From Patescibacteria group bacterium UBA926 (GTDB taxonomy: Bacteria > Patescibacteriota > Doudnabacteria > UBA920): a DNA stretch of 64,000 bases. The notes beneath the pieces are model-generated. The model saw only the letters and a list, made by a program, of their open reading frames with translations, was not told where the DNA came from and searched no databases. Within the stretch, counting starts at the first letter, position 1. The number at the start of each line of letters is the position of its first letter. This document shows positions 11,163 to 57,313 of this stretch, piece after piece. The stretch covers positions 34,479 to 98,478 of the forward strand of contig DBDS01000004.1 in assembly GCA_002293685.1 (NCBI GenBank). Reading direction: 5' to 3'. The position numbers and the translations under genes are program-made.

Positions 11163-11720
11163 TTATAACGAGTATTTATAAAGGAGTGTTTCAATCACGT
11201 TTTGGTGTTTTAATCGGAGTTCCTCGTCGCGACCAATCTCGATGATTTCATCGTTGCGGTCTGTACCGCTTGCTGTCCAGTTGAAAGAACCAGTGAAATA
11301 AGATTTTTCGGTGACCAAAGTTTTCAAATGCATAATCGAACTATGATCGTTGAAGGCGATTGGGATTCCTGCTTGTTGTAAATCTTTTACAATTGATTCT
11401 TGGATATCTAAGGTGGTTGATTGTTTCTTATCCATGACCCTGCGCACTTCAACACCTCTATATTTAGCACCAATGAGAGCGTCTTTGATGTCTTGTCTGG
11501 TGAAAGTATAAATCGCGAAATACACAAACCGTTCGGCTTCGTTTATTTCGTTGATTAATAACTCGTTGCTAGCCACTTCTTTGTTGTAATACACTTCCAC
11601 TTGGCGTGCTGCACGTTCTTGCCACGCCGGTTCAACATGAAAAGAATAATAGAACTGCGCGCTCACGGCGATAAGCCCTGCTATTATAGTGACGTAGATT
11701 AAGTCTCTGTTGATTTTCAC
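11163..11720 (-). CDS. phospholipase D-family (HKD-motif) protein, Nuc-like
   Basis: HLKTLVTEKSYFTGSFNWT matches HxK(x)4D(x)6GSxN. An N-terminal TM helix is present. The GTG start lies inside the inverted-repeat module. Confidence 0.65.
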   Translation of the reverse strand: MKINRDLIYVTIIAGLIAVSAQFYYSFHVEPAWQERAARQVEVYYNKEVASNELLINEINEAERFVYFAIYTFTRQDIKDALIGAKYRGVEVRRVMDKKQSTTLDIQESIVKDLQQAGIPIAFNDHSSIMHLKTLVTEKSYFTGSFNWTASGTDRNDEIIEIGRDEELRLKHQNVIETLLYKYSL

Positions 11721-11816
11721 CCTGTTAAATTATTAATATTGATTTAGATGCTCAGATTTATGAACAACTATTCAACCTGTTGAATCTGAAAGTTAAAATG
11801 TATTTAACAGGGTGAA
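11716..11816. repeat. ORF-less inverted-repeat module TTCACCCTGTTAAAT ... ATTTAACAGGGTGAA (15-bp perfect inverted repeat, ~70-bp spacer)
   Basis: Read directly from the sequence. The repeats match the terminal repeats of the GIY-YIG cassette at 18104-18382. One repeat overlaps the start codon of the PLD-like gene. Confidence 0.8.
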
Positions 11817-11877
11817 TATTTATATTATAAAACAGGACGTTCAAACCCTGTTTAAGAAAAACTCAATTTTGATGTAA

Positions 11878-12315
11878 TTATTTGTCTGTGTGTTTTGTAG
11901 TTTCGCGTTTGTCGTCTCTGGTTTTGATGTATTCGCGCTTGTCTTGTTTCTTGCGACCACGGCCAACACCGATTTTTAGTTTCACTAAATTTTTTGGACC
12001 AATGAAAATTTCCATTGGCACAATGATAGTTCCTTTTTCTTTGCCGAGCAGTTGGTTCAACTCTTTTTTGTTTAACAAGACTTGTCGGTCTTTGGTTGGG
12101 TTGTAGTCTTCAGTTGGCGCATACTTGTAAGGTCCGATGTGCGCGTTTACAAGGGTTGCTCCTCGGGCGGAGATTTTGACGTAGCTACCCGCTAGCGAGA
12201 CGTTGCCAGTTTTGGCTGATTTAACTTCGCGACCTTCCAATACCAAACCAGCATCAAAGGTGTCTGTGATGTCGTAATCAAATTTCGCTCGTTTGTTGAA
12301 AGCTAAAGATTTCAT
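11878..12315 (-). CDS. smpB: SsrA-binding protein SmpB
   Basis: Contains KFDYDITDTFDAGLVLEGREVKS...LLNKKELNQLLGKEKGTIIVP, the conserved SmpB sequence. Confidence 0.9.
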   Translation of the reverse strand: MKSLAFNKRAKFDYDITDTFDAGLVLEGREVKSAKTGNVSLAGSYVKISARGATLVNAHIGPYKYAPTEDYNPTKDRQVLLNKKELNQLLGKEKGTIIVPMEIFIGPKNLVKLKIGVGRGRKKQDKREYIKTRDDKRETTKHTDK

Positions 12316-12386
12316 ATTGTTGTCCCTTATATTTTACCTGTAATAGACTAATAAAAAAAGCCGGAGTGGGGAGTACTCAGGCTAAG

Positions 12387-12635
12387 TTATTCTTTCCATT
12401 CTTCGAGCCAGGATTTGTCGAATAAATCATCTCCGTCGAGAATGAACAGTGGTTTATCAGTTTGACGATTGCCAAGCATGACCTTAGGGTTTTCATAAAG
12501 ACCCATTTCAGCATGGACAACCTCAAATGGTCCAGGTCCGAACTTTTTTTCCATGAGGTCTATCCAACTGCTCCGATTTTTGGAGCGCCAAGTTACTTTT
12601 GTTCCAATTTGGAAGTTCTCTGGCGTATTCTTCAT
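12387..12635 (-). CDS. hypothetical protein
   Basis: 82-aa ORF. No motif recognised. Confidence 0.35.
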   Translation of the reverse strand: MKNTPENFQIGTKVTWRSKNRSSWIDLMEKKFGPGPFEVVHAEMGLYENPKVMLGNRQTDKPLFILDGDDLFDKSWLEEWKE

Positions 12636-12733
12636 AATTAAATGCCTCCGTTTTGTTGACTTACTATAAAGTAAAACAGTGGAATTGTCAAGATTACTGC
12701 TTTCGATTTTGTGTTATAATTAAACCCATGAAC

Positions 12734-12825
12734 CCTGTTAAATATGCTAATTTCTTGAACAACAGGGAACAATTAGATTGGCTTACCAGTCTATTTTTAC
12801 TCATTAAATATTTAACAGGGTGAAA
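12734..12825. repeat. ORF-less inverted-repeat module CCCTGTTAAATAT ... ATATTTAACAGGGTGAAA overlapping the argS GTG start
   Basis: The repeats are 13/13 complementary with a ~62-bp spacer. GTG at 12820 is inside the right-hand repeat. Confidence 0.8.
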
Positions 12826-14556
12826 GCTTATATTTCCGGCTTAATTAGCGATGCTGTAAGGCAAATTTCTCCTTCCGAAGCGGAGGAGGTTTTAGGTTCG
12901 GGCAATTTCGATATCAGCTATCCAAAGAGCGGCTTTGGTGACTACGCAACCAATGTCGCGATGATGCTGTTTAAGAAGTTCAATGTTGTTCCGGCAGAAA
13001 ACCCAGTTGATTTTGCAAAACAATTAGCAGAAAAATTAGTCGAACTTGATGGTGGTTATACTTTTTCGAATATCGAAGCTCAGAACGGATTTATTAATTT
13101 CACAATTTCACCAAGAGTTTTGTTAAATACTTTGTCGGAGATAATTGAAGCCAAAGAAAATTACGGCAAAGTGGATTTAGGACAAGGTCAAAAAGTTTTG
13201 GTTGAATATTTTCAGCCGAACATCGCTAAGCCTCTTCATCTTGGTCATTTGCGCACTGCTATTATTGGTGATAGCTTATTCAAAATTTTGGGCTTTTCAA
13301 ATTATCAAACCGAGAGCGATACTCACTTAGGTGACTGGGGAACTCAATTTGGTTTGCTCATGCTTGCTTACAAAAAATGGGGCGATGCAGAAACAGTGAA
13401 GCAAGATCCAATTACAGAATTGAATAAACTTTATGTTCGTATCAATACAGAAATGGAAGCCGACCCAGAATTACGCGAACAAGGTAAGGCAGAGTTTGTG
13501 AAACTAGAACAGGGTGATTCCGAAAACGAAGAACTTTGGAAACAGTTTAAAGAATGGAGCTGGCAAGAATTTGGGATCATCTATGATGATTTAGGTGTGC
13601 GCAAAGCCGATAATGATTGGCCGGAAAGTTTTTACATGGATAAAATGCCAGCTGTTATTGAACAACTAAAGGCTAAGAATTTATTAGTTGAATCTCAGGG
13701 CGCGCAGATTGTGAATTTAGAAGATTACGGTTTAGGTGTTGCTGTGGTTGTAAAAAGCGATGGTGGAACAACATATTTGCTTCGTGATTTAGCAACTTAT
13801 ATTTTCCGAAAACAACAAGGCTTTGAAAAACAAATTTATGTTGTCGATAATCGCCAGTCTCACGCATTAGCGCAAACTTTTAAAATCTTAGAATTACTAG
13901 GAGTGATTACTTCGCCAACCGAAGCTGTTCACATTGCTTACGGTGTGTTGAGTTTGCCGGAAGGTCAGATGAGTACCCGAAAAGGCACAATGGTTGGAGC
14001 GAAAGAGTTGATTCAAAAAGCGCAAGAGAAAGCTTTAGAGATTATCAATGAAAAGAATCCTGGATTACAGAATAAAGAAGCTGTTTCCAAACAAGTAATG
14101 CAAGCGGCCTTAAAGTATTTCGATCTTTCCCATAATTACAAAAGCGATATCGTGTTCACTTGGGACAAAGCGCTTTCGTTTGAGGGGAACACCGGTCCTT
14201 ACTTGCAATACACCCATGCTCGAATCAATGGAATTTTACGAAAAACCCAAGGTATCGCAGTCGAACAAATTGATCAGAACATTGCACTCGAAGACATAGA
14301 GCAACTACTACTTCGTAAGTTGCAAAAGTTCCCGGAAATAATTACTCAAACAGCAGAAAACTTTTCACCGAATATTATTAGCAACTATCTTTTCGAACTT
14401 TCTCAGATATTCAATTCGTTCTATGAAGCCGTGCCGATTCTAAAAGAAACAGATAGCGCGAAACAAAATATTCGAATTAAAATTATTATCGGAACCGCAC
14501 AAGTATTAAAAAATGGTCTTAATCTTTTAGGCATCCCAGCACCAGAGGAAATGTGA
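12820..14556 (+). CDS. argS: arginine--tRNA ligase
   Basis: 578-aa protein with a class I HIGH motif (PLHLGHLRTA) and an MSTRKG motif. It matches ArgRS along its full length. Confidence 0.95.
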   Translation: MKAYISGLISDAVRQISPSEAEEVLGSGNFDISYPKSGFGDYATNVAMMLFKKFNVVPAENPVDFAKQLAEKLVELDGGYTFSNIEAQNGFINFTISPRVLLNTLSEIIEAKENYGKVDLGQGQKVLVEYFQPNIAKPLHLGHLRTAIIGDSLFKILGFSNYQTESDTHLGDWGTQFGLLMLAYKKWGDAETVKQDPITELNKLYVRINTEMEADPELREQGKAEFVKLEQGDSENEELWKQFKEWSWQEFGIIYDDLGVRKADNDWPESFYMDKMPAVIEQLKAKNLLVESQGAQIVNLEDYGLGVAVVVKSDGGTTYLLRDLATYIFRKQQGFEKQIYVVDNRQSHALAQTFKILELLGVITSPTEAVHIAYGVLSLPEGQMSTRKGTMVGAKELIQKAQEKALEIINEKNPGLQNKEAVSKQVMQAALKYFDLSHNYKSDIVFTWDKALSFEGNTGPYLQYTHARINGILRKTQGIAVEQIDQNIALEDIEQLLLRKLQKFPEIITQTAENFSPNIISNYLFELSQIFNSFYEAVPILKETDSAKQNIRIKIIIGTAQVLKNGLNLLGIPAPEEM

Positions 14557-14582
14557 CATCATAAACCAGAATTTGTTTATGA

Positions 14583-14740
14583 TGTCATCCCGGCAGCTAC
14601 AAGTGGTCCCCGCTTTCGCGGGGATAAACTCCGCGAGGACGAGGGCTAGCCGGGATCCATACCCTTTAAACTAATGGATTCCCACCTTCGAGCTCGCGAT
14701 GCTCGGGCTCTGCCCGAGCAAGCTCGTGTGGGAATGACAA
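14583..14740. repeat. composite GC-rich palindromic element E4 (TGTCATCCCGGCAGCTACAAG...CTAGCCGGGATCC followed by GGATTCCCAC...GTGGGAATGACAA)
   Basis: The first half is the reverse-complement homolog of elements at 26060-26150 and 57601-57679. It lies between argS and ileS and ends 9 bp before the ileS start. Confidence 0.85.
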
Positions 14741-14749
14741 CGGAAAATT

Positions 14750-17700
14750 ATGACAGAACAAACTAACAAACCACAATCAAATACTCCAAATTTTAACGAA
14801 CAAGAACTAGAAGTTTTAAAGTTTTGGGCCGAGCAAAATATTTTTGAGAAGAGCTTAGAGCAAACTAAAGATGCTAAACCTTTTGTTTTTTATGATGGAC
14901 CACCGTTTGCAACAGGAGTTCCTCACTACGGACACATTTTAATTTCGGCCGTTAAGGATGCATTCGGTCGTTATCAAACCATGAAGGGCAATTCTGTGCG
15001 TCGTGTTTGGGGATGGGATTGTCATGGGTTGCCTATTGAAAATATTGTTGAAGCCAAGCTTGGTATTTCTGGAAAGAAGCAAATTGAAGAAGTCGGTGTC
15101 GAAAAGTTCAACGCAGCTTGTCGTGAAAACGTCCTTACCTATGTAGACGAATGGGGTCGTACCATTGAGCGATTAGCACGCTGGGTTAACTTCAAGGACT
15201 CCTATAAAACTATGGACACCACCTACATGGAAAGTGTCTGGTGGGGTGTAAAGCAAGTGTGGGATAAAGATTTAATTTACCCTGACCATAAAGTTTTGCT
15301 TTACTGCAGTCGCTGTGAAACGCCATTGTCGAATTTTGAAGTGGCGATGGACAACAGTTATAAAGATGTCACAGAAGCTTCTGTTTTCGTCAAGTTCAAG
15401 TTAAATAGTGGTCAGCGAATTTTGGATTTCATGACCGACGATAAAACTTATGCTTTGGCGTGGACCACAACACCGTGGACATTACCTGGTAATACTGCGC
15501 TAAACATTGGCCCAGAAATCACTTACGTTATTGTTGAGCAAAACGGCGATAACTATATTTTAGCTAAGGACAGATTGGAAATTTTAGAAGGGCAATACGA
15601 AGTTAAGACAGAAATCAGTGCACGTTCTTTGGAGGGCTTAGCTTACGAACCATTGTATCCTGGCGTAATTTCCGATGAATCTGGTACTGCTCACAAGATA
15701 TATATAGAGGATTATGTCACAACTACTGATGGAACAGGGATAGTTCATAATGCTGCGATGTATGGGGAAGAAGATTTCGCGGCTGCCAAGGCACGCAATT
15801 TACCTCGTCAACATATGTTGGATGCGAAGGGTGAGTATCTACCATCTGCGCCTGAGAGCTTGCGCGGCGTGTTCTTTAAAGATGCTGATAAAATTGTTCT
15901 CGATGAATTGACTAGCAAAAATTTGGTTTATAAAACTCTTAACTACACTCACAGTTATCCTCACTGTTGGCGTTGTGGTACAGCGTTGTACTACTCAGCG
16001 TTACCAGCTTGGTTTATCAATATTCAAAAAGTGAAAGCGCGAATGCTCGAACTTAACGAAGGAATCAATTGGTATCCTGAACATCTTAAACACGGTCGCT
16101 TCGCGCAAGGAATTGAAAATGCGCCTGATTGGAACATTTCACGTAACCGTTATTGGGCAACGCCTTTGCCATTTTGGTTGTGTGAGAGCGAAGATTGCGA
16201 TAACAAAGTTTGTATAGGCTCAATTGATGAACTAAAAACCAGAGCTTCAAATTTCGATGAAGTTTATCCAAACTACGATCCGAACCCCTCCCTACCCTCC
16301 CCTCAGGAGGGGAGGGATAGGGAGGGGTCAATTGATTTGCATAAACCATTCATTGATAGAATCAAACTGCCTTGTGAAAAATGTAGCGGTGTAATGGCTC
16401 GCGTTCCTGAAGTAATTGATTGCTGGGTTGAATCTGCGAGCATGCCGTTTGCAGAACTCCATGCCCCGTTTGAAAACCAAGATTTGTTAGAACAGCGCTT
16501 ACCAGCAGATTTTGTATCTGAATATATTCCGCAGACCCGGGCTTGGTTCTACGTGTCGCATGTAATGAGCACGATCATTTTCGACAAAGCTCCGTTTAAA
16601 AATGTGATTACAACCGGAACAGTTTTAGCAGAAGACGGTACAAAGATGTCGAAATCAAAAAATAATTTCCCTGACCCAAATCTTGTTATTGATCAATACG
16701 GCGCAGATCCACTTCGTTTTTATCTTTTGACGAGTTCGATTGTAACCGGTGAAGACTTGAATTTCTCTGAAGCTGGCGTTTCTGAAGTAAACCGAAAGTT
16801 AAGTTTAATTCTTTGGAACACATTCCAGTTTTATAGAATGTATAGCCACGACACAATTGGCACCGAAGCGCCTCACGTAACTCACAGCCTAGATGTTTGG
16901 ATGCTGTCTAGATTGTTTGCAACACATGCTGAAGTTACAAAACAATTAGATGGTTTTAACACAGTGAAGGCAGGACGTGCTATTTCTGAATTAGTTACCG
17001 AACTTTCAACTTGGTTTGTTCGTCGCAGCCGCGATAGAATTAAATCCGGTGGGGAAGACGCTCGCACCGCGCTTCAAGTATTAGGTTTCAGTCTTGTTGA
17101 AATCAGCAAGATGCTTGCGCCATTTATGCCGTATCTCAGTGAAAAGATTTACAAAGAACTTACCGGTGAAGAATCAGTGCACTTAGCTTCTTGGAGTGAA
17201 GTTCGTGAGTATCGTCAAAGTAGTTTGGATGAAATGTCGGCTTTACGTTCAATAGTTGAAATCGGTCTAAGTCTTCGTAAAGAACACAACTTAAAAGTTC
17301 GCCAACCACTCGCAGAATTACAGTACCAAATTGCTAACGAAGAATTGAATCTAGACGAATCACTCGAGCAAATCATTGCCGAAGAAATGAATGTGAAGAA
17401 AGTGACAAACACCGAAGTAATCTCTCGCACCAACTGGGTCTCGAAAGCGGATAATGGTTTTATAGTTGCACTAAATACAGAGTTATCACAAGAATTAAAA
17501 GATGAAGGTTTGGCTCGTGATATCGAACGCGCCGTTCAAGATTTGCGAAAGAAGAGTGGTCTAAAAGTCGGACAAATTGTTGATTTGTATTTCACAACTA
17601 AGGACGACAACCTTGCCGAGATTCTTACATCATTAGTTGATCGAAAAAAGACTTTTATCAATCAAATTAAAACTAGCTTAGAGATTGAAGCTGATTACGA

Positions 17701-17755
17701 GACCCAGGCAACGATTAATGGCTCTGTGGTTTGGCTCGGCTTAGTTTTGGTGTAA
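14750..17755 (+). CDS. ileS: isoleucine--tRNA ligase
   Basis: 1001-aa protein with HYGH and KMSKS motifs. It matches IleRS throughout and carries a 45-bp palindromic in-frame insert. Confidence 0.95.
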   Translation: MTEQTNKPQSNTPNFNEQELEVLKFWAEQNIFEKSLEQTKDAKPFVFYDGPPFATGVPHYGHILISAVKDAFGRYQTMKGNSVRRVWGWDCHGLPIENIVEAKLGISGKKQIEEVGVEKFNAACRENVLTYVDEWGRTIERLARWVNFKDSYKTMDTTYMESVWWGVKQVWDKDLIYPDHKVLLYCSRCETPLSNFEVAMDNSYKDVTEASVFVKFKLNSGQRILDFMTDDKTYALAWTTTPWTLPGNTALNIGPEITYVIVEQNGDNYILAKDRLEILEGQYEVKTEISARSLEGLAYEPLYPGVISDESGTAHKIYIEDYVTTTDGTGIVHNAAMYGEEDFAAAKARNLPRQHMLDAKGEYLPSAPESLRGVFFKDADKIVLDELTSKNLVYKTLNYTHSYPHCWRCGTALYYSALPAWFINIQKVKARMLELNEGINWYPEHLKHGRFAQGIENAPDWNISRNRYWATPLPFWLCESEDCDNKVCIGSIDELKTRASNFDEVYPNYDPNPSLPSPQEGRDREGSIDLHKPFIDRIKLPCEKCSGVMARVPEVIDCWVESASMPFAELHAPFENQDLLEQRLPADFVSEYIPQTRAWFYVSHVMSTIIFDKAPFKNVITTGTVLAEDGTKMSKSKNNFPDPNLVIDQYGADPLRFYLLTSSIVTGEDLNFSEAGVSEVNRKLSLILWNTFQFYRMYSHDTIGTEAPHVTHSLDVWMLSRLFATHAEVTKQLDGFNTVKAGRAISELVTELSTWFVRRSRDRIKSGGEDARTALQVLGFSLVEISKMLAPFMPYLSEKIYKELTGEESVHLASWSEVREYRQSSLDEMSALRSIVEIGLSLRKEHNLKVRQPLAELQYQIANEELNLDESLEQIIAEEMNVKKVTNTEVISRTNWVSKADNGFIVALNTELSQELKDEGLARDIERAVQDLRKKSGLKVGQIVDLYFTTKDDNLAEILTSLVDRKKTFINQIKTSLEIEADYETQATINGSVVWLGLVLV
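16284..16328. repeat. in-frame palindromic insert in ileS: ACCCCTCCCTACCCTCCCCT|CAGGAGGGGAGGGATAGGGAGGGGT
   Basis: Near-perfect 45-bp palindrome, GC-rich, encoding PSLPSPQEGRDREGS (15 codons). Confidence 0.85.
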
Positions 17756-17773
17756 TCGTGGTATAATAATTCT

Positions 17774-18028
17774 ATGGATGCAATCTCAGGATTAAAATAC
17801 GCTTTAGTACTTGTTCTAATCGTTAGTGCTGCCTTGCTTGGCTGGACTACTTATTTAGAACGCAAAACTAATAGTCAAATTGAAGCATTTTCATCAGCCA
17901 TTAGCCAAGCTCAAAATGAAGCTCAAGCCAGACAGGTAATTCAAAACTTCCTTATTGATACCGAAAAGTTTAATCCGGCTTTATCAGCTTCAGCCGATAG
18001 CCAGCCCTGTAGTTGGCTCTGTGAGTAA
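17774..18028 (+). CDS. hypothetical small membrane protein
   Basis: 84-aa ORF with one TM helix. Confidence 0.4.
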   Translation: MDAISGLKYALVLVLIVSAALLGWTTYLERKTNSQIEAFSSAISQAQNEAQARQVIQNFLIDTEKFNPALSASADSQPCSWLCE

Positions 18029-18035
18029 ATCTTAA

Positions 18036-18072
18036 ACCTCCGTCTACATAATAGTATGACGGAGGTTTTTTC
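18036..18072 (+). terminator. intrinsic terminator ACCTCCGTC-loop-GACGGAGGT plus TTTTTT
   Basis: Perfect 9-bp stem plus a T6 run. Confidence 0.85.
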
Positions 18073-18103
18073 ATATTAATCACAGCTTGTTTGATATAAT
18101 TAA

Positions 18104-18382
18104 CCCTGTTAAATAATTTCAAATTTAAACATGCACTATGTTTATGTACTGTGTTCAGAGAAGGATAAAAAATGGTATACTGGTTATACTAGAAATTTGA
18201 AATTAAGATTTGAGCAACATAGGTTAGGTAAAGTAGTTTCTACTAAGCATCGCAGGCCTTTGAAGCTAATTTATTATGAAGCCTGTTTGAACCAACAAGA
18301 TGCAACTCACCGAGAAAAGTATTTAAAAACTTTTCATAGTAAAGTATTTATCAAACGTAGGCTCAAATCTTATTTAACAGGG
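18104..18382 (+). mobile_element. minimal GIY-YIG cassette: 84-aa nuclease gene bounded by inverted repeats CCCTGTTAAATAA / TATTTAACAGGG
   Basis: The inverted repeats abut the ORF, whose last codons YLTG* are encoded by the right-hand repeat. ORF-less repeat pairs occur at 11716-11816, 12734-12825 and 57209-57313. Confidence 0.6.
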
Positions 18383-18385
18383 TAA
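18131..18385 (+). CDS. GIY-YIG nuclease family protein (COG2827-like)
   Basis: MHYVYVLCSEKDKKWYTGYTRNLKLRFEQHRLG, carrying the GIY...YIG motif. Confidence 0.8.
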   Translation: MHYVYVLCSEKDKKWYTGYTRNLKLRFEQHRLGKVVSTKHRRPLKLIYYEACLNQQDATHREKYLKTFHSKVFIKRRLKSYLTG

Positions 18386-18387
18386 AC

Positions 18388-19095
18388 ATGCTAGCTAGAG
18401 ATTTAATGACAAAAAAGGTAATCACTGTTACTCCCGAAACACTCGTAAGTGAGGTAGCGGATCTTCTTCATAAGTATCATTTCACTGGCGTCCCTGTTGT
18501 AAATGATGAAGGTCGTGTTTTGGGTACTATTTCGGAACGAGATTTCATTACCGCCGATTCAAACTTGTATTTACCTACATATATTCATATGCTTTCGAAT
18601 CTAGATTATGTGAGAGGTTCGAACAAGCAACTTCCTCATGTGGTTGAGCAAGTGGTGAATGCAAAAGCAAAAGATATTATGAACCAAACCATTCCTTTTG
18701 CCCGACCTGATACTTCGATTGAAGAAATTGCCCGCATGTTCGCAGAGCAACGCGTGAACCCAGTGCCTGTCACCGACAGCACAAATAAATTACTAGGCGT
18801 AATTGCTCGTAGTGATTTAATTAAATTCTTTTCTCCTGGAATGGTTCGCTCTTCATATATTCCCCAGCAGGAAACTGTGCCTCGTGCACGGATGATTGAT
18901 TCTCAAGTTGCATACACACAATCCCATTTCTCTTCGACTTTTGCTTATGTTGCAAAAGCTAGGGCAAATATTTGGATAACCACAGCTGTTGTATTATTTT
19001 TGGTAGGTTTTATCGGGGGAATAATTTATGTTGCTGACCCGAATGTGTTTCGTGGTAAAATGAGCCCACAGTATTTACCAACTCAGGAAGAATAA
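18388..19095 (+). CDS. CBS-domain pair protein with C-terminal TM helix
   Basis: Two CBS-like segments (VITVTPETLVSEVADLL... and GVIARSDLIKF). Confidence 0.75.
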   Translation: MLARDLMTKKVITVTPETLVSEVADLLHKYHFTGVPVVNDEGRVLGTISERDFITADSNLYLPTYIHMLSNLDYVRGSNKQLPHVVEQVVNAKAKDIMNQTIPFARPDTSIEEIARMFAEQRVNPVPVTDSTNKLLGVIARSDLIKFFSPGMVRSSYIPQQETVPRARMIDSQVAYTQSHFSSTFAYVAKARANIWITTAVVLFLVGFIGGIIYVADPNVFRGKMSPQYLPTQEE

Positions 19096-19098
19096 TCA

Positions 19099-21764: not shown

Positions 21765-21806
21765 ACTCTACCCCGATTTGTGCGGCCGCACAAATCGGGG
21801 TAGAGT
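21765..21806. repeat. 42-bp perfect palindrome (second copy of the GCGGCCGC-core hairpin) between convergent genes
   Basis: ACTCTACCCCGATTTGTGCGG|CCGCACAAATCGGGGTAGAGT. Its 36-bp core is identical to 192-227. Confidence 0.9.
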
Positions 21807-25700: not shown

Positions 25701-26654
25701 ATGACAATAGATACTCTTAAAAGTTTATTAAAACACTATGGTCTAAATCCTAACAAGACATACGGTCAGCATTTTTTAATGGACGAAACAATTCTTGAAG
25801 ACATGGCTGATGTTGCTGATGTTAAAGCGGGGGATATGGTTGTAGAAATCGGACCAGGGATTGGTAACTTGACTGAAATTTTGTTAAAGCGAGAAGCAAC
25901 TGTTTTATCAATTGAAAAAGATGAACAGTTTATAAGAGTTCTTCGCACGCTTTCAAAGCAATACAAAAATTTTGAGTATGAGTTAATTGATGCATTGAAA
26001 TTTAATTTCTCCTCTTTCCTGTCATCCCCGGGCGAGCGTAGTGAGAACCGGGGATCCACTAGTGGGTCCCGGCTAGCCCGCGCGACTTCGTCCGCCAAAA
26101 TCTCTACGAGATTTAGGCGGACTTCGTCGCTTGTAGCTGCCGGGAAGACACCACAGTATAAAGTTGTCGCCAACATTCCTTACTACATCACTGGGAAAAT
26201 TGTTCAATTGTTTTTGAAGCAGGAGCATAAACCAAAAAGCATGACATTGCTTATGCAGAAAGAAGTTGCTAACAATATTGTTGCGAAAGTTGGACAACTA
26301 AACTTGTTAGCAATTTCTGTACAACTATATGGCGACGCAAAATTAGTTACAAAAGTTCCTGCTTTTAAATTTCATCCGGCTCCAAAAGTTGAGAGCGCAG
26401 TTATTCATATCGAATTATTTTCCAAACCAAAATATAAATTGAAAGACGAGCAAAAGTTTTTTCGAGTGTTGCGCGCTTGCTTTGCAGGGAAGCGAAAGCA
26501 AATCCATAACACACTGACAAATAATTTAGGACTAGAAAAAACTGTTGCATTGCAAAGTTTGGAAAATATAAATGTTGACCCAACGGCAAGACCACAGCAA
26601 CTAACAATCGAACAATGGATTAAGTTAGTAGACTCAATTGAATTGCCAAATTAA
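25701..26654 (+). CDS. rsmA: 16S rRNA (adenine1518/1519-N6)-dimethyltransferase RsmA/KsgA with ~44-codon in-frame GC-rich insert
   Basis: Contains GQHFLMDE, VVEIGPGIGNLT and YKVVANIPYYITG motifs. It is 317 aa versus ~270 for typical KsgA. The insert lies between FNF and YKVVANIPY. Confidence 0.9.
   Translation: MTIDTLKSLLKHYGLNPNKTYGQHFLMDETILEDMADVADVKAGDMVVEIGPGIGNLTEILLKREATVLSIEKDEQFIRVLRTLSKQYKNFEYELIDALKFNFSSFLSSPGERSENRGSTSGSRLARATSSAKISTRFRRTSSLVAAGKTPQYKVVANIPYYITGKIVQLFLKQEHKPKSMTLLMQKEVANNIVAKVGQLNLLAISVQLYGDAKLVTKVPAFKFHPAPKVESAVIHIELFSKPKYKLKDEQKFFRVLRACFAGKRKQIHNTLTNNLGLEKTVALQSLENINVDPTARPQQLTIEQWIKLVDSIELPN
26019..26150. repeat. GC-rich palindromic element E6 inserted in frame in rsmA
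   Basis: TGTCATCCCCGGGCGAGCGTAGTGAGAACCGGGGATCCACTAGTGGGTCCCGGCTAGCCCGCGCGACTTCGTCCGCCAAAATCTCTACGAGATTTAGGCGGACTTCGTCGCTTGTAGCTGCCGGGAAGACA. It is homologous to 53002-53039, 57601-57679 and 14583-14657. Confidence 0.9.
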
Positions 26655-38898: not shown

Positions 38899-39055
38899 GT
38901 CATTCTGAACAAAGCAACTTCATCATTCTGAGCTCTTCGAAGAATCTACCTCTGTCATTCTGAAGCCGTAGGCTGAAGAATCCAATAATTAGAGATCCTT
39001 CGCTTCGCCCGCCAAAATCCCTTTGAGATTTAGGCGGATTACGCTCAGGATGGCA
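38899..39055. repeat. GC-rich element E8: three tandem GTCATTCTGA(A/G) sub-units plus a CGCCAAAATCCCTTTGAGATTTAGGCGGA module
   Basis: Read directly from the sequence. The CGCCAAAATC...GAGATTTAGGCGGA module also occurs inside the rsmA insert at 26085-26125. Confidence 0.85.
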
Positions 39056-41238: not shown

Positions 41239-41283
41239 AAATACTATACACAAAATTTTATATTATCCTTGGCTTAACTAAGT

Positions 41284-41376
41284 ATCCCCGGCGAAGGCCG
41301 GGGCCTACATCACAGATCCCGGATCGCCTTTGGCGTCCGGGAATACTTTTTTTGTCATCTCAGCGTCTGGGAATAC
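41284..41376. repeat. GC-rich palindromic element E9 (ATCCCCGGCGAAGGCCGGGG ... ATCCCGGATCGCCTTTGGCGTCCGGGAAT ... TGTCATCTCAGCGTCTGGGAAT)
   Basis: Homologous to the segment at 62717-62790 inside miaA. Confidence 0.85.
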
Positions 41377-45678: not shown

Positions 45679-45915
45679 TTAAATTAGATGTCTGTTTCTA
45701 AACCCTTGTCCAGAACCAGACTTTAAGTATTTTTCAAAATTAAGAGCATCTTGCCTCTTAGAGAATGCACAGTACCATATTAATTTAACTGGTAGAAAAT
45801 TTTTAGTAGCATTCACTGACCCTTCGGTGTGTCGGTTCAATCTTTCTTTTACGTCTTTACTACTACCTGTATAGATTTTACCATTTATTAGTTTTAGTAG
45901 ATACACGTAATGCAT
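45679..45915 (-). CDS. GIY-YIG nuclease family protein (second copy), adjacent to tRNA-Ser
   Basis: MHYVYLLKLINGKIYTGSSKDVKERLNRH. The start is taken at the internal Met. The upstream extension of the called ORF overlaps a hairpin. Confidence 0.7.
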   Translation of the reverse strand: MHYVYLLKLINGKIYTGSSKDVKERLNRHTEGSVNATKNFLPVKLIWYCAFSKRQDALNFEKYLKSGSGQGFRNRHLI

Positions 45916-46023: not shown

Positions 46024-46111
<88 letters not shown>

Positions 46112-46550
46112 ACGTCGTACTTGTCTCCGAGCTTTCGGTACAGGCTAAAGCCTGTCCCTTACGCTCTCCATCAAGTACTCCTCTCACATTCACGCTTAAC
46201 CTCGCTATCGCTCGGCCCAAGTGTGAATGTGGTAAACTCACTTTCTTGGTCGCGGATACGGCAAGCCGTCCCGCTCCTTGTTCGCACTGGCGAAGCCAGA
46301 CGCTCACATGCTAAAGAATATTGTTGCCCTACGGGCATCTAAGATAAATCTAAATTGTGGATACTGTAAGTAGGACCTCCCTAACTACACTGTCTAAATG
46401 ACTCTACTATTATAACATTTTACCAAACTAAATCAAAAACGAGCCGTACTCTAGAATTGGCTCGTTTTTTGTTGGGTTTCGATTTCTGGTAGTACTATCA
46501 TTTCTGGATGGACGCCCACTTGGACTCAACTGGGCGTAGACCAAAAAGGA

Positions 46551-48505: not shown

Positions 48506-48598
<93 letters not shown>

Positions 48599-48810
48599 TC
48601 GTCGCAACAACCTCCATCCGTTCAAATTTGGCTAAAGCCAAATTTTCACTAGTTCCGGTGTTGCTCCTCTCACATTCACGCTTAACCTCACTACGCTCGG
48701 CCCAAGTGTGAATGTGTCAAATTATTAATACAGTCGCGGATGCTGCAAGCGGCCCCGCAGATATGTATCAATAACTCACTCATTTTACTGCAAAAGTGGT
48801 CATTGGTCAA

Positions 48811-49750: not shown

Positions 49751-49760
49751 AACTTATAGA

Positions 49761-52522: not shown

Positions 52523-52631
52523 TTATTTTATATCGGATTTATGAGTGAATGTCAACTCTATATATAACTACCGATATCTATTATAATTGTAACACGCATC
52601 GAAATTTTGTTATCTATTATTTCTCAAAGTT

Positions 52632-53144
52632 ATGTTTAAGAAAGCTCGACCACTGAAAGATCCTTCCGATTACGACCACGGCTATCAATATGCCTTATTC
52701 TTGCTCAATTTAAGCATGCGGACTGTTGGCGAAGTAAGAGACAAAATGACTAGTCGCGGATACACTTCTACTGTAATAAACGAAGTTATAAACAATCTGT
52801 TACAAGAAAAATACTTGAACGACTCAAATTATGCCGAAGTTTTTATAAATAGTATGAAAAACTATAAAACTTGGGGTCGGTTCATGATGAAAAAGAAGAT
52901 GTATGAGAAAAAATTACCGAAAGAATTAATTGACGAAAGCTTAAATGAATTTTTAAGTACCAAAGAAGAGAAGGAAATTGCTATGAGGTATCTATCTTCC
53001 ATGTCATCCTCGGTCGAGCGAAGCGAGAACCGGGGATCCATTGAATGGATTAAATCCCTGCCTTACGACGAAAAACAAAAACTAATGAGAAAGTTATTAT
53101 CACGCGGGTTTGGGATGGACATAGTAACAAAACTAATAAAATAA
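52632..53144 (+). CDS. recX: RecX-family regulatory protein with short in-frame GC-rich insert
   Basis: 170-aa ORF with a three-helical-repeat pattern (YALFLLNLSMRTVGEVRDKM...). Confidence 0.6.
   Translation: MFKKARPLKDPSDYDHGYQYALFLLNLSMRTVGEVRDKMTSRGYTSTVINEVINNLLQEKYLNDSNYAEVFINSMKNYKTWGRFMMKKKMYEKKLPKELIDESLNEFLSTKEEKEIAMRYLSSMSSSVERSENRGSIEWIKSLPYDEKQKLMRKLLSRGFGMDIVTKLIK
53002..53039. repeat. truncated copy of the rsmA-type GC-rich element inside recX (TGTCATCCTCGGTCGAGCGAAGCGAGAACCGGGGATCC)
   Basis: ~85% identical to 26021-26055. It is translated in the same frame (ERSENRGS). Confidence 0.85.
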
Positions 53145-53188
53145 AAAACTGCAGGACGGGGAGCCCTGCAGGTGATCTCGGATAGAGA

Positions 53189-53737: not shown

Positions 53738-53825
53738 AATATATTGTCCCTCACTATCAGATTTTCGAACTTGCCCAGTATACCAAAAACAGGCACTTTT
53801 GTCAATACCTGTTTTATGAATTATA

Positions 53826-54146
53826 TTAGTGTATTCTTTCACCAGTATTGATGACACCATCATCATCTGGCAAACCTTCTTTACTAGTTCTGATGTATCT
53901 ATTCAACTCTCTTGCTATGTTGTTCAAAGTTTGGATTTCTTCTAATTGCTTGCCTGTCGGTGCTGGGTGCTCATCTAATTTAGTCGAGAGCTCTTCTTGA
54001 ATTGTTCGGTAAAGAGACTCAACTTCTGTTGCTGATAATTCTTTTTCTGATATTTTTTGATAAATTTTCGAAACTATTTCATCGTTAAAATACCATTCTT
54101 GAGGAAGTGAAGATTCAAAATTGAAATTTGGTTTATATTTTTCCAT
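53826..54146 (-). CDS. hypothetical protein
   Basis: 106-aa acidic ORF. Confidence 0.35.
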   Translation of the reverse strand: MEKYKPNFNFESSLPQEWYFNDEIVSKIYQKISEKELSATEVESLYRTIQEELSTKLDEHPAPTGKQLEEIQTLNNIARELNRYIRTSKEGLPDDDGVINTGERIH

Positions 54147-54147
54147 T

Positions 54148-55053
54148 TTATTTATCCATCCCTCTAAGGCGCTTGATACGTTCTTCTATTGGTGGGTGAG
54201 TGTTGAATAATCCTGCAAACCAACTTTGTCCGTCGCCTTCGTGATCTTTGAGCGGATTGGAAATATATAAGTGAGCAGTTGCTTTATTGGCAGTTTCCAG
54301 TGGTTCATGATCGGCTGCAATTTTTTCTAAAGCAGAAGCTAAACCTTCAGGGTAACGAGTCATCAATGCGCCGGTTGCATCGGCAAGATACTCGCGTTGT
54401 CTGGAGACAGCTAACTGAATTAACATTCCAACTATTGGTGAAAGAATTGCTAAGCCAATTCCAATAAGCAGGAATACTCCGTTATTCCCACCGCCTTCAC
54501 TATTCTTTCTATTGCCACCAAAAAATGACATTCTTAACATCCAATCGGCGAGAAGTGTAATGATTCCAACTAAGACAACCACTAAAGCCATGAAGCGGAT
54601 ATCGTAGTTGCCGATATGTGAAAGTTCGTGAGCGAGAACACCTTCGAGTTCGGTTTTATCTAGTTTTTGAAGTAAACCTGTAGTTACAGCAATGACGGCA
54701 TTGTCGGGATTACGACCGGTTGCGAAAGCATTTAAGGCTGAGTCTTCTATTATATAGACACGTGGCATCGGGAGACCTGCAGCAATTGAAAGATTTTCAA
54801 CAATTCTATAGAGTTCAGGATTAGCATTCAAATCAATTTGGGTTGCTCCAGACATTGAAAGTGCAATTTGATCGGAGAAAAAATATGAAATAATAGCTGA
54901 TACAGAACTAAACACAACTGCTAGCAGTAAAATTTCTGGTGCTCCGTACGCTTGCGAGAATACAAAACCAAGCCCGATGATTACGAGAAGGAATACCATT
55001 ATGAGCAAAACCGAATAGGTTTTATTTTTACTAATTTGGGTGTATGTAAGCAT
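54148..55053 (-). CDS. htpX: M48-family zinc metalloprotease HtpX
   Basis: HELSH motif inside HAHELSHIGN, with TM helices flanking. Confidence 0.85.
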   Translation of the reverse strand: MLTYTQISKNKTYSVLLIMVFLLVIIGLGFVFSQAYGAPEILLLAVVFSSVSAIISYFFSDQIALSMSGATQIDLNANPELYRIVENLSIAAGLPMPRVYIIEDSALNAFATGRNPDNAVIAVTTGLLQKLDKTELEGVLAHELSHIGNYDIRFMALVVVLVGIITLLADWMLRMSFFGGNRKNSEGGGNNGVFLLIGIGLAILSPIVGMLIQLAVSRQREYLADATGALMTRYPEGLASALEKIAADHEPLETANKATAHLYISNPLKDHEGDGQSWFAGLFNTHPPIEERIKRLRGMDK

Positions 55054-55055
55054 GA

Positions 55056-55571
55056 TTAACTAACAGGTCCACATTTAGCTGGTTCAATAATTCTATCCAC
55101 TTTTTCCAACCGAACTGAACCGCCGCCAGTGTTGTAATAACCTTCTTTGAAGCTTGAGTAAACTATAGAAGCTTTTCCTGAAATTTGTTCGCACTTATCT
55201 CCATCTAATTTGCCAGCACTGTTAGTGTTGAGCATTAGTTTAGCCTCAGCTTGGTTTTCAAAACAGTAGGTTGGATTTCCTGCATCAGGGGTAAAGCATA
55301 ATGTGTCTGGTGCGATTCCAATAGCATACATACTAAATGTTCCAGAAATTCGAGTGTGTCCTGTAGGTAGTACTGCTTCTGTGTTATCGGGTTTTGCTTG
55401 CTCTGGTTCAGGTGTGGTGCTCTCATTTTCGTTGTCCGGAGTTTTGTCTTGCACTGTTTCGTTAGACGAGTTGATTTCGCTTTGGTTTTTATCTTTTAAA
55501 ACTAGTGACCACACCAGTAATATTGAAAGAGCGACAACTGCAATTATTGCAACAATGATTTTTGTATTCAT
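55056..55571 (-). CDS. hypothetical secreted protein
   Basis: 171-aa ORF with an N-terminal TM/signal segment. Confidence 0.4.
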   Translation of the reverse strand: MNTKIIVAIIAVVALSILLVWSLVLKDKNQSEINSSNETVQDKTPDNENESTTPEPEQAKPDNTEAVLPTGHTRISGTFSMYAIGIAPDTLCFTPDAGNPTYCFENQAEAKLMLNTNSAGKLDGDKCEQISGKASIVYSSFKEGYYNTGGGSVRLEKVDRIIEPAKCGPVS

Positions 55572-55575
55572 ATTA

Positions 55576-56124
55576 TTAGAACTTTACTTCAACTGGTTGC
55601 TGCTCTGGCCCATTATCATCAATATCGAAGAATGCCCGCTTAGTGAAACCGAGCATCTGAGCAAATAAGTTAGTCGGGAACACTTCAATTTTAGTGTTGA
55701 AGTCACGAACATTACCATTATAGAAACGACGTGCGGCCTGAATCTTGTTTTCTGTATCCGTTAAATCATTTTGCAATTGCAAAAAGTTTTGGTTGGACTT
55801 TAAGTCTGGGTAGTTTTCAGCAACAGCAAACAAACTTTTCAAAGTTCCTGAAAGCATGTTTTCATCTTGCTGATGTTCTTGCACAGTCTGTGCGCCCATG
55901 GCTCGAGTACGAGCCTCAGTGACGCGTTCCAAAACACCAGATTCTTGTGCCGCGAAACCTTTAACAGTGTTTACAAGGTTTGGGATTAAGTCATAGCGAC
56001 GTTTAAGTTGAACCTCAATGTCTGCCCATGCTTCTTCCACACGATTGCGAGAACGAATTAAAGAGTTGTATACACCAACACCTATAATAAGTACCGCTAC
56101 GATAATTATTACAAAAATTAACAT
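55576..56124 (-). CDS. lemA: LemA family protein
   Basis: N-terminal TM helix and the conserved LemA core (YNSLIRSRNRVEEAWADIEVQLKRRYDLIPNLV). Confidence 0.85.
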   Translation of the reverse strand: MLIFVIIIVAVLIIGVGVYNSLIRSRNRVEEAWADIEVQLKRRYDLIPNLVNTVKGFAAQESGVLERVTEARTRAMGAQTVQEHQQDENMLSGTLKSLFAVAENYPDLKSNQNFLQLQNDLTDTENKIQAARRFYNGNVRDFNTKIEVFPTNLFAQMLGFTKRAFFDIDDNGPEQQPVEVKF

Positions 56125-56296
56125 AATTTCCTTTCTATTATTTATTACCGAAATTGGTTTGATAGTAACATTAGTATAGCAAAACCACTAGCTCAATTCT
56201 AGTTAAAATAGCACCTACTTTAATATGCTTTCGTCTGATAAGGTGCCTGCACTGCGAAGTCCACCAGTGGCGGACGTAGGGGTGTGGATAGCTGGA

Positions 56297-56325
56297 TTGA
56301 CACAGAGCGAGAAATTCAATATAAT
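56297..56325 (+). promoter_or_regulatory. consensus sigma70-type promoter TTGACA-N17-TATAAT
   Basis: Exact -35 and -10 hexamers with a 17-bp spacer. Confidence 0.55.
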
Positions 56326-56445
56326 TGCTCATATGAATTTATATCTGCACACAACCTGCGCAAACATTACTAAGGCGATTCGTTTTGCCTTTTTGCCTTT
56401 TGCGTTTTCAGGCGTCAGATATAGAGCATAATTTTTCTAGGAATT

Positions 56446-56482
56446 AACTCGCTATCTGGTCCGCCGGGTAGCGAGTTTTAAT
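56446..56482 (+). terminator. leader hairpin AACTCGCTA-loop-TAGCGAGTT plus TTTAATTTT (attenuator-like), 25 nt upstream of a strong RBS
   Basis: Read directly from the sequence. It sits ~120 nt downstream of the consensus promoter. Confidence 0.45.
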
Positions 56483-56505
56483 TTTAATTAGCAACGGAGG
56501 AAAAA

Positions 56506-56709
56506 ATGAAAAAGGATGAAGTTGAAAATTCTGACCCAAAAGTAGGTTTGGTTCAAACGATCAATTCCCACGGGTTTTTGGATAAAGGTGACGACTGTGA
56601 TCGCGCCATGATACTACAAGGCATCAGAGAACGCACATCCCAGCGTTTAGTGAGGAGATTCGCGGGCAAAGGGTTAAGACGAAGAATTCACACTCAGGAG
56701 GGTCAGTAA
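56506..56709 (+). CDS. hypothetical small protein 1 of a GC-rich three-gene cluster
   Basis: RBS AACGGAGGAAAAAATG. Local GC is ~50% versus ~38% in the flanks. Confidence 0.4.
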   Translation: MKKDEVENSDPKVGLVQTINSHGFLDKGDDCDRAMILQGIRERTSQRLVRRFAGKGLRRRIHTQEGQ

Positions 56710-56921
56710 TGGAAGGTAATTCTTGCGGCAAGGGCCATGTTGGCAATTCACGCTTACGCTTTACTAAGGAGCAGGCGGAGTCGGAAGCTGTTAAGCATCC
56801 AGCGGTCAATGATCATGGATTGTTAACAAAGCGATATCGGTTACAGAGTCGCTATGGGTTAGAGGTTGGAAAGAACAGCAAACAGGAGGTTGAAAATGAG
56901 CATTCGTCGAGAGAGTGGTAG
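56709..56921 (+). CDS. hypothetical small protein 2
   Basis: RBS AGGAGGGTCAGTAATG overlapping the upstream stop. Confidence 0.4.
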   Translation: MEGNSCGKGHVGNSRLRFTKEQAESEAVKHPAVNDHGLLTKRYRLQSRYGLEVGKNSKQEVENEHSSREW

Positions 56922-57135
56922 GCCGGGATTTGTTCGAAGTTCTGGCATGGAAGACTTGGTTGCCAAACCTGCCCAAGGTGTGGTCGGTATTGGTATCGAA
57001 GGATTAAGTCCGAGCGAAGTACAGGACATAGTAAATAGTCCAAATCGGATCGGACCGGATGAAGTGCGTCGTTACACCGATGAAGAAATACACCAATCAT
57101 GGGGTGCGGAGCGCAACTTCGGGGCATTGAAGTGA
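56896..57135 (+). CDS. hypothetical small protein 3
   Basis: RBS ACAGGAGGTTGAAAATG. It overlaps the 3' end of protein 2 in another frame. Confidence 0.4.
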   Translation: MSIRRESGRPGFVRSSGMEDLVAKPAQGVVGIGIEGLSPSEVQDIVNSPNRIGPDEVRRYTDEEIHQSWGAERNFGALK

Positions 57136-57155
57136 ACTTATGTTCATTGCATTAT

Positions 57156-57186
57156 AGCGCAGACTTTGTTCTGCGCTTTTCTATTT
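57156..57186 (+). terminator. intrinsic terminator AGCGCAG-ACTTTGTT-CTGCGCT plus TTTCTATTTT
   Basis: Perfect 7-bp stem plus T-run after the small-ORF cluster. Confidence 0.8.
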
Positions 57187-57208
57187 TATTTATTCCCTCT
57201 ATAATTTA

Positions 57209-57313
57209 CCCTGTTAAATATAGCTGAAATTAGCTAGTTTAGAAGACGTGTTTTGGTTTCGTAAAAGTGTTATAATTAACACATAAATCATAAATAATTT
57301 AACAAGGTAAATG
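57209..57313. repeat. ORF-less inverted-repeat module CCCTGTTAAATA ... ATTTAACAAGGTAAATG abutting the gatC start, with internal extended -10 TGTTATAAT
   Basis: Same half-sites as the GIY-YIG cassette. The right-hand half-site is degenerate by one base. TATAAT at 57271-57276. Confidence 0.7.

Follow-up and report, generated by a model that had tools for sequence, protein, structure and literature searches.

Candidate mobile elements sharing their inverted repeats with a small GIY-YIG nuclease gene lie at the promoters and start codons of four genes of a Patescibacteria bacterium

In a stretch of 64,000 nucleotides from Patescibacteria group bacterium UBA926 (contig DBDS01000004.1, positions 34,479 to 98,478; hereafter "the window"), four short modules bounded by the same terminal inverted repeats (TIRs, or "arms") stand directly before four genes, which encode a PLDc_2 protein (the PLD gene), ArgRS (argS), a CBS-domain protein (the CBS gene) and GatC (PF02686). 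Matches to ArgRS and GatC place the source within Candidatus Doudnabacteria, a lineage of the Patescibacteria. One of the four, before the CBS gene, encloses a small gene of the "GIY-YIG" nuclease family; the other three lack a nuclease open reading frame (ORF). With good confidence, we interpret all four as insertions of a single family of very small TIR-bounded mobile elements rather than as regulatory sites, the ORF-less copies being non-autonomous and similar to miniature inverted-repeat transposable elements (MITEs). In the same interpretation, and with the same confidence, the cassette of about 290 bp is the autonomous form, with the nuclease as its sole gene and with a left repeat that is the inverted right repeat, placed about 15–25 nt before the ATG of that gene.

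Repeat pairs and empty sites

The 11-mer CCCTGTTAAAT occurs in seven exact copies across both strands of the window, where 0.03 are expected (the mean of 100 dinucleotide-preserving shuffles, none of which reached seven). All copies are confined to inverted pairs at four places, 11720/11812, 12733/12820, 18104/18382 and 57209, the last with the degenerate partner AATTTAACAAGG at 57296–57307. These counts bear out the repeat pairs where the original prediction, made from the sequence letters, had located them, and the spacing it gave is confirmed by the 69, 64 and 75 nt that separate the 12-mers of the three ORF-less copies. Extended to 12 nt, the arms are perfect in two modules, whereas one arm of the PLD module carries one mismatch and one arm of the gatC module carries two. 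The ORF-less cores span 88, 93 and 99 nt.

Relatives with the same gene order, retrieved via their ArgRS and GatC proteins and cited here by locus number, have empty sites at all four places, so that the comparison with module-free orthologous promoters suggested at the outset could be made throughout. At argS, the empty sites of L128, L130 and L215 read TTATAATTAA(N4)ATGAAAGCTTATATT, also written TTATAATTAA-N4-ATGAAAGCTTAT, with the promoter and start codon in the arrangement TATAAT-N7-ATGAAAGCT; the filled site of the window reads ...CCCA TGAA[core]TGAA AGCTTAT, a 4-bp direct duplication. The empty site of the PLD gene (L128/L129), TTTTATAATATAAAT ATG AAA ATC AAC, in which the promoter and start codon are TATAAT-ATAAAT-ATGAAAATC, corresponds in the window to ...ATAAATA[TTCA+core]TGAAAATC, the insert having parted the A of the ATG from its TG. 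At gatC, the empty sites of L212, L213 and L214 are TATAAT-N6-ATGTTA and the window has TATAAT TTA[core]TAA ATGTTA; the core alone has been added, splitting the 6-nt spacer between the native TATAAT and the gatC ATG as TTA^TAA. At the CBS gene, L128 and L130 have TATAAT-N6-ATG (in L130, TATAAT TTAAAC ATG) and the window has TATAAT TAA[cassette]TAAAC ATG. No arm pairs were found in the 57 kb of these relatives (15 kb per relative). In five of the five junctions that can be reconstructed, the element lies immediately 5' of T(G/A)AA, and TRAA is the target of the family.

Native promoters and rebuilt start codons

From the comparison with empty sites it follows that the promoters of the four genes are native and that the two GTG start codons are chimeric, each combining the last G of the arm with an old TG. 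For argS and the PLD gene, the target TRAA was the TGAA of ATGAA, and the start codon is therefore now the G of the arm followed by TG. The use of the last G of the arm by both GTG codons had been predicted correctly, and the broader proposal that the elements donate start codons holds for this G, while the TG is what remains of the original ATG. GTG is the only usable start for argS (12820) and for the PLD gene (11720, minus strand). The ArgRS of the window begins VKAYIS where all homologues begin MKAYIS, with the Arg_tRNA_synt_N domain extending from residue 8, and the PLD homologues start MKIN. The gatC and CBS genes keep their own ATG, 3 and 5 nt past the arm, respectively, and not at the 6–8 nt originally described.

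Donation of promoters, which had also been proposed, is contradicted by the empty sites, as the TATAAT boxes are already present there, 6–7 nt from the ATG. For all four elements, the relevant TATAAT is outside the module, 3–12 nt upstream of the distal arm and on the gene strand. Two modules had been described as containing such a box internally; the gatC module does contain an exact TATAAT, and no other module has one inside. A promoter scan with two hexamers found nothing inside the modules. Donation of a Shine-Dalgarno sequence likewise does not hold, as a motif of this kind accompanies 4 of the 54 long ORFs of the window and the AGGG of the arm is only 3–5 nt from the ATG.

Given the usual distance between a -10 box and the start of transcription, a -10 box 6–7 nt from the ATG implies leaderless or near-leaderless transcripts, and the rarity of Shine-Dalgarno motifs fits a promoter geometry of this type. 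Several operon-first genes in the window also have TATAAT 5–10 nt from the ATG, a spacing that suggests that leaderless or short-leader transcripts may be widespread in the source organism.

The original ATG has been retained at argS, 7 nt after the native TATAAT, and there opens the only ORF found in the ORF-less modules, an upstream ORF (uORF; 12728–12823, plus strand) of 31 codons, MNPVKY...KYLTG*. It spans the module from end to end, its TGA stop overlapping the GTG of argS (GTGA), and it is identical in L121. The GTGA overlap may allow translational coupling between the two reading frames.

The cassette and its protein

The 84-residue product of the cassette matches the Pfam GIY-YIG family (PF01541) with E = 3.7e-15 over residues 1–70, and Y3, Y5, Y16, G18, R26, H30, and E62 are invariant among 19 sequences; by analogy with other GIY-YIG enzymes, R26 and E62 are candidate catalytic residues. 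The right arm is itself the end of the gene: its codons encode the C terminus YLTG, and the stop codon is the TRA directly after the arm. The terminus KSYLTG is found in 106 of the 120 best relatives. The protein has 7188 relatives at E ≤ 0.001. The solved structures among them, identified by sequence, are UPF0213 proteins only (Protein Data Bank entries 1zg2, BH0048, E = 9e-9, and 1ywl, EF2693, E = 4e-7), and the NCBIfam and defense-system (PADLOC) models gave no match to the 84-residue protein.

A second, divergent GIY-YIG ORF of 77 residues is encoded on the minus strand at 45685–45915. It is 44% identical to the first, gives a weak match to group I intron endonucleases and is without CCCTG arms; its TAA stop directly precedes the start codon (ATG, 45678) of the following gene, and a tRNA-Ser gene (46024–46111) lies beside it.

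Arms and nuclease gene as one co-evolving unit

A protein-guided scan of metagenomes with a Patescibacteria-based query yielded 80 loci (L132–L211) with 83 cassette matches. Nearly all of these matches have TTYA-CCCTGTTAAATA-ATTTTAAATTT upstream of the gene and TATTTAACAGGG-TRAA at its end. In a set of 64 distinct arm pairs, chosen because a stop immediately follows GGG, that stop is itself followed by A in every case (64/64).

The two arms co-vary. Across 65 cassettes, pair 13/34 is UA in 55, CG in 6 and GC in 4, with none unpaired, and pair 7/40 is CG in 63 and UA in 2. The covariation score of 0.091 compares with 0.065 in shuffles; none of 500 shuffles reached the observed value, and all slid controls were beaten as well. 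Synonymous or near-synonymous changes in the right arm (TTA to TTG or TTC, GGG to GGA) are matched in the left arm, which is non-coding. A more divergent nuclease in L104 has its own variant arms, CCCCGTTAGATAA/TTATCTAACGGGG, and a more divergent GIY-YIG subfamily (L167/L172) has its own arm pair, CCCTGTGTAAT/ATTACACGGGG. The arms and the nuclease gene are thus one co-evolving unit, in which selection acts on the complementarity of the arms.

The pairing does not extend into the flanking TTYA/TRAA, since 38 of 65 cassettes have no base pair at the Y/R position. The flanks occur mostly in two combinations, TTCA with TAAA in 31 cassettes and TTTA with TGAA in 15, the complementary combinations being rare (2 and 4); this pairing of flanks may reflect two sub-lineages. 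An arm variant ending ...CAGGA (L185, L196) gives a junction with TGAA that reads ATGA. In L185 the left arm has the matching change (TCCTG), and the start of the downstream gene seems to be an ATG created by the junction.

Distribution across phyla

A scan of genomes, one per species, with the pattern CCCTGTTAAAT-N50-80-ATTTAACAGGG, whose 50–80 nt spacer sets the apparent range of module sizes, found at least 120 loci in Patescibacteria, Desulfobacterota, Planctomycetota (Scalindua), Gammaproteobacteria, Cloacimonadota, Zixibacteria, KSB1, Aminicenantes, Bacteroidota, and others. ORF-less arm pairs are present in at least 10 phyla. Their interiors fall into 79 clusters among 130 modules and are unrelated between lineages; a single lineage can contain multicopy families with as many as 15 members. 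These families testify directly to mobility, as do several further arrangements: an ORF-less module at L104 interrupts another GIY-YIG gene at ...TATTA^T(G/A)AAGC, two loci (L145, L147) have clear deletion derivatives of a cassette, in which its leader, part of its ORF and its 3' end remain, and tandem and nested arms are found. Among 2.9 million viral contigs, there was no match to the pattern or to the protein.

At a Saccharibacteria locus (L042, 5856–5957), a tRNA-Met gene lies exactly between perfect arms, CCCTGTTAAAT...ATTTAACAGGG, so that the arms can evidently flank cargo other than the nuclease gene.

The multicopy families, deletion derivatives and nested insertions bounded by the same arms strengthen the part of the original prediction that regarded the modules as MITE-like relatives of the GIY-YIG cassette, which is already upheld by their absence from the orthologous Doudnabacteria sites and by the 12-bp arms that they have in common with the cassette. 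The other part of that prediction, in which the half-sites are a palindromic operator pair of some regulator that was later invaded by the GIY-YIG gene, is very improbable. In its favor are the four gene-proximal inverted pairs adjoining -10 boxes within one 64-kb window. It is contradicted by the empty sites: the half-sites are missing from the orthologous promoters. Moreover, their spacing ranges from about 50 to 255 nt, the right half-site is GIY-YIG coding sequence in every cassette, and the sites extend together with the nuclease gene across at least 10 phyla. In gene maps of the foreign loci, drawn from long ORFs, 125 of the 127 arm pairs obtained by scanning genomes lie between genes, which have every orientation, including 17 convergent pairs.

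Insertion at gene junctions

In the metagenome cassettes, the start of the next gene is at most 12 nt from the stop of the nuclease gene in 38 of 71 cases, 13 of them with TAA|ATG and 7 overlapping as in argS. On the other side, 17 of 68 cassettes have an upstream ORF whose frame enters the left arm and is closed by a TAA triplet there. The element thus typically occupies the junction between two genes, where its sequence presents stops in two frames on the entry side and a G before the TG of the target on the exit side. An exact TATAAT is found at most 22 nt upstream in 5 of 73 cassettes, compared with 0.5% of random positions; this is an enrichment only, and the -10 box was rejected as a general feature of the target.

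Folding and a possible regulatory role

The modules of the window fold much better than shuffled sequences (RNA z = -4.6 to -6.4), with the GTG at the foot of a stem of 14–15 bp. The PLD module, at the lower end of this range (z = -6.4), has a 15-bp outer stem with inner hairpins. A third, internal copy of AACAGG in the argS and PLD modules would permit alternative pairing. Inside the argS module, upstream of an essential gene, a terminator-like hairpin, TAGATTGGCTTACCAGTCTA, is followed by the T-run TTTTT (12774–12793).

Such features could be expected if the modules were, or had become, cis-regulatory leaders in which the start codon is hidden in the transcribed stem of the arms, the stem serving as attenuator or translational switch for the argS, gatC, PLD, and CBS genes. 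The folding, the terminator-like hairpin, the third AACAGG copy and the identity of the modules between genomes 97–98% alike all agree with a role of this kind, which we nonetheless consider improbable. The modules are absent before the same genes in relatives whose ArgRS is 77–89% identical, the three interiors have nothing in common, and elsewhere the arms are found between convergent genes and within a gene. Nor do the modules match Rfam: comparison of the whole window at the gathering score gave nothing at any of them, comparison of 11600–18500 at E ≤ 10 gave nothing at the PLD and argS modules or the cassette, the gatC module having been compared at the gathering score only, and 17 loci of other lineages gave no match. 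If the modules had a regulatory effect, it would be incidental to their insertion. The more specific possibility of a T-box or other aminoacyl-tRNA leader was rejected because orthologues lack the modules and because two of the four genes have no link to tRNA.

History within the Doudnabacteria

By identity of ArgRS and IleRS, L128 is nearest to the window; next comes L215, outside the pair they form, and then L130. The lineage of the window has kept the cassette intact, L215 has it in decayed form, and from L128 it is cleanly absent. In L215, a frame-broken cassette occupies the same site before the CBS gene, with its register unchanged; its identity to the cassette of the window is 77%, higher than to any metagenome cassette. 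With a decayed ortholog at the same site, the cassette looks old. The ORF-less modules are probably younger, since L128, L215, and L130 lack those of argS and the PLD gene, and L212–L214 lack that of gatC.

In a small sample of 15 syntenic kb each, ORF-less modules were confined to the lineage whose nuclease gene is intact and were missing from L128 and L215, a pattern consistent with dependence of the modules on the nuclease. The modules are unchanged between genomes that are 97–98% identical, and no polymorphism within the species was found, the modules being present in L121, L127, and all five places that carry an identical GatC. An apparent 234-nt indel in L127 is merely a run of N.

A possible mechanism and its difficulties

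Most probably, the GIY-YIG nuclease would recognize the arms and cut at the boundary between core and TRAA, in duplex or in folded DNA, and host repair would then finish excision and insertion. No one chemical rule fits the junctions, and the joining would be imprecise and repair-mediated. The arms may be recognized as a snapped-back hairpin or cruciform, a mode that may apply because the protein consists of the catalytic domain only and its solved relatives are UPF0213 proteins. In the window, the elements entered genes with a leaderless-type promoter geometry (TATAAT-N6/7-ATG), between the start codon and the native -10 box, and would be transcribed from these promoters as stems of 14–15 bp with inner hairpins. 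Downstream expression could be kept by coupling of stop and start codons, through the uORF and GTGA at argS and through TAA-AC-ATG at the CBS gene. Alternatively, a short-leader mRNA might be restored by RNase III-type processing of the stem, as has been reported for the Correia elements.

Several observations weigh against a family of elements mobilized in this way. To our knowledge, GIY-YIG enzymes are hydrolytic nucleases without strand transfer, so that to speak of a "transposase" would be our own inference. The sequence added beyond the core amounts to 0 nt at gatC, about 3 nt (TAA) at the CBS gene, 4 duplicated nt (TGAA) at argS and 4 unduplicated nt (TTCA) at the PLD gene, and a single rule of target duplication or of cut-and-paste was rejected, as these four junctions differ. 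The interiors of the three ORF-less copies of the window resemble the cassette and one another no more than expected by chance. For the same reason, their description as decay products of the cassette of the window is not borne out, and the possibility that they are recent deletion derivatives of it was rejected, although such derivatives exist elsewhere. Across phyla, about 10% of arm ends outside cassettes abut an ORF start, which is below the random control; a preference for gene starts is therefore not general, and with arm pairs intergenic in all orientations, neither are the arms in general parts of promoters or operators. Finally, in Desulfobacterota and Pseudomonadota the arm pair is merely one part of a repeat of at least 270 nt.

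The larger repeat has outer inverted repeats of its own, GACGGCAAAG.../...CTTTTTACGAAGCCGTCA, in the Pseudomonadota metagenome-assembled genome (MAG) CSMAG_2168 and in related Desulfobacterota loci. In this MAG (L012, L026, L034, L035, L068, L085, L086, L102, L116, L118), the arm pair is the center of the repeat, which is present in at least 10 copies and has no match in Rfam.

Some of these difficulties would be eased if the arms were mobile and the GIY-YIG gene were a passenger or accessory, movement being due to an enzyme encoded elsewhere (a transposase or recombinase) or to host recombination. The restriction of the 84-residue protein to its catalytic domain (Pfam match, residues 1–70), without a DNA-binding module, the heterogeneous junctions, the occurrence of the arm pair inside larger repeats in some phyla and the tRNA-Met gene flanked by arms in L042 would all be accommodated. 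This reading is hard to reconcile with a right arm that lies in the last four codons of the gene in nearly all 83 cassette matches and a left arm that co-varies with synonymous changes in those codons. A divergent GIY-YIG subfamily, moreover, has its own arm pair, and no other candidate gene travels along in a cassette of only some 290 bp. On balance, we regard it as unlikely, though as the most serious of the alternatives, and mobilization by the GIY-YIG nuclease itself appears the better account of the arms and of the gene that ends in them.

More tentatively, the family may be a new class of element: a minimal autonomous element of about 290 bp in which an 84-residue GIY-YIG protein is the mobility enzyme and whose gene ends in its own repeat and borrows its stop from TRAA. 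Its MITE-like offspring would be distributed over many phyla and, in Patescibacteria, would prefer promoter/start or stop/start junctions, where the arms supply upstream stops and the G for a GTG and essential genes survive the insertion. The smallest known insertion sequences measure about 700 bp, and we know of no insertion-sequence family that uses a GIY-YIG nuclease. No description of these arms, or of a bacterial GIY-YIG gene with inverted repeats, was found in Rfam, NCBIfam, PADLOC, or the searchable literature.

If mobilization by the nuclease holds, it would provide a role for the large family of genes annotated as "GIY-YIG nuclease family protein" and would add a type of nuclease to the enzymes of mobile elements. 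The insertions also account for a recurrent oddity of Patescibacteria, essential genes with GTG starts after about 90 nt of hairpin, and show that a streamlined genome with leaderless-type promoters tolerates insertions into start codons. For annotation, chimeric start codons and small read-through ORFs are to be expected at such sites. The 12-bp arm conserved across phyla and the 84-residue protein together form a compact candidate pair for DNA recognition and cleavage.

Coordinates of the elements and associated features

Table 1. Positions in the window of the four elements, their flanks and the promoter and start-codon features of the adjoining genes
Feature	Position	Strand	Remarks
ORF-less module, PLD-like gene	11716–11816	-	Core CCCTG...CAGGG, 11720–11812 (93 nt)
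Flanks of PLD module	11813–11816; 11716–11719		TTCA (gene strand); TGAA
GTG start, PLD gene	11718–11720	-	Last G of core plus TG of former ATG
Native -10 TATAAT, PLD gene	11824–11829	-	Outside module; kept in empty-site relatives, 6 nt from ATG
TATAAT upstream of argS module	12715–12720	+	Native
ORF-less module, argS	12729–12824	+	Core 12733–12820 (88 nt)
Flanks of argS module	12729–12732; 12821–12824		Direct duplication of TGAA
GTG start, argS	12820–12822	+	
Native -10 (TG-A-TATAAT), CBS-gene operon	18095–18100	+	Upstream of cassette
Full cassette	18104–18382	+	Left arm 18104–18115, right arm 18371–18382
Conserved leader in cassette			ATAATTTCAAATTT
GIY-YIG ORF, 84 residues	18131–18385	+	Last four codons TAT TTA ACA GGG = right arm
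Stop TAA of GIY-YIG ORF	18383–18385	+	In flanking TAAAC, also in the L130 empty site
ATG, CBS gene	18388	+	
TATAAT upstream of gatC module	57200–57205	+	Native
ORF-less module, gatC	57209–57307	+	Core 99 nt, right arm degenerate (AATTTAACAAGG)
TATAAT within internal hairpin of gatC module	57271–57276	+	
ATG, gatC	57311	+	

Other repeats in the window

The window contains further repeats. A GC-rich palindrome, CCCCTCCCTACCCTCCCCTCAGGAGGGGAGGGATAGGGAGGGG, at 16281–16330 lies in frame within ileS (14750–17755), where it replaces about six codons, and gives weak Rfam matches of the Pab91 and miRNA-like types; the IleRS of the window has 1001 residues, compared with 990 in L121 and L128. Similar GGAGGGG palindromes at 59025–59049 and 62183–62207 may, with that of ileS, represent a second small family of palindromic insertions. 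A perfect 36-nt palindrome, CTACCCCGATTTGTGCGGCCGCACAAATCGGGGTAG, is present in two identical copies 21.5 kb apart (192–227 and 21768–21803), and the L127 assembly has a run of N exactly at this palindrome.

Short GC-rich repeat families are found at 26013–26149, 39003–39043, 41281–41328, 52995–53040, 57620–57679, 60786–60808, and 62591–62771. These repeats, among them TCATCCCCGG...CCGGGGATCCA and a tandem of 42 nt at 62591–62716, are unrelated to the CCCTG arms, and some lie just 3' of genes, including between gatC and gatA. Two tRNA-Ser genes (tga and gct; 46024–46236 and 48506–48721) have about 200 nt of duplicated flanks in common, with 85–100% identity.

Relation to known systems

The arms recall the "attC" sites of integrons, which also have imperfect inverted repeats, variable centers and 7-nt cores; GTTAAAT and ATTTAAC of the arms fit the degenerate consensus GTTRRRY and RYYYAAC. 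An attC site reads RYYYAAC...GTTRRRY, whereas in these elements GTTRRRY comes first on both strands, and an attC identity was rejected on this order. Among the neighboring genes scanned there was no integrase, nor was there an array of cassettes, and we judge the fit to be a coincidence.

With the small GIY-YIG proteins of UPF0213/COG2827 (1zg2, 1ywl), the cassette protein has in common its size and the presence of the catalytic domain alone; no report of flanking inverted repeats or mobility was found for them in the literature. The free-standing GIY-YIG homing endonucleases (T4 seg, I-TevI family) offer a likeness in behavior, as small selfish genes with a GIY-YIG domain that lie between host genes and spread through DNA breaks mended by the host. 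Homing endonucleases have a separate DNA-binding domain and one long cognate site; the protein of the cassette has 84 residues, the catalytic domain only, and is found at many sites beside many different neighbor genes, with co-varying inverted repeats and ORF-less derivatives.

A closer parallel in organization is provided by the REPIN/REP-RAYT systems, in which a small nuclease-type gene lies between inverted short repeats, ORF-less doublets are dispersed intergenically, and repeat and gene co-evolve. In the present family, by contrast, the gene is of the GIY-YIG type (PF01541) and not an HUH/Y1 RAYT, the end of its coding sequence lies within the repeat, and the distribution covers many phyla instead of being lineage-specific.

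As MITEs, the ORF-less modules have TIRs, small size without a transposase gene, presence and absence at orthologous sites, and TIRs in common with an autonomous element; a target-site duplication of fixed length is lacking, and the only constant is insertion 5' of T(G/A)AA. The nearest counterparts are the gene-proximal bacterial MITEs known as Correia elements (CREE) in Neisseria and RUP in pneumococcus. These are likewise non-coding, TIR-bounded, intergenic sequences of about 100 bp whose presence varies among relatives, which are presumed to be moved in trans and whose hairpins are co-transcribed with neighboring genes. The elements described here differ in that their arms are those of a 290-bp GIY-YIG cassette rather than of a DDE transposase and that they have no fixed TA-type target duplication. 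They differ also in pairing a 12-bp arm conserved across phyla with unrelated interiors, and in rebuilding the start codons of the genes that they enter.

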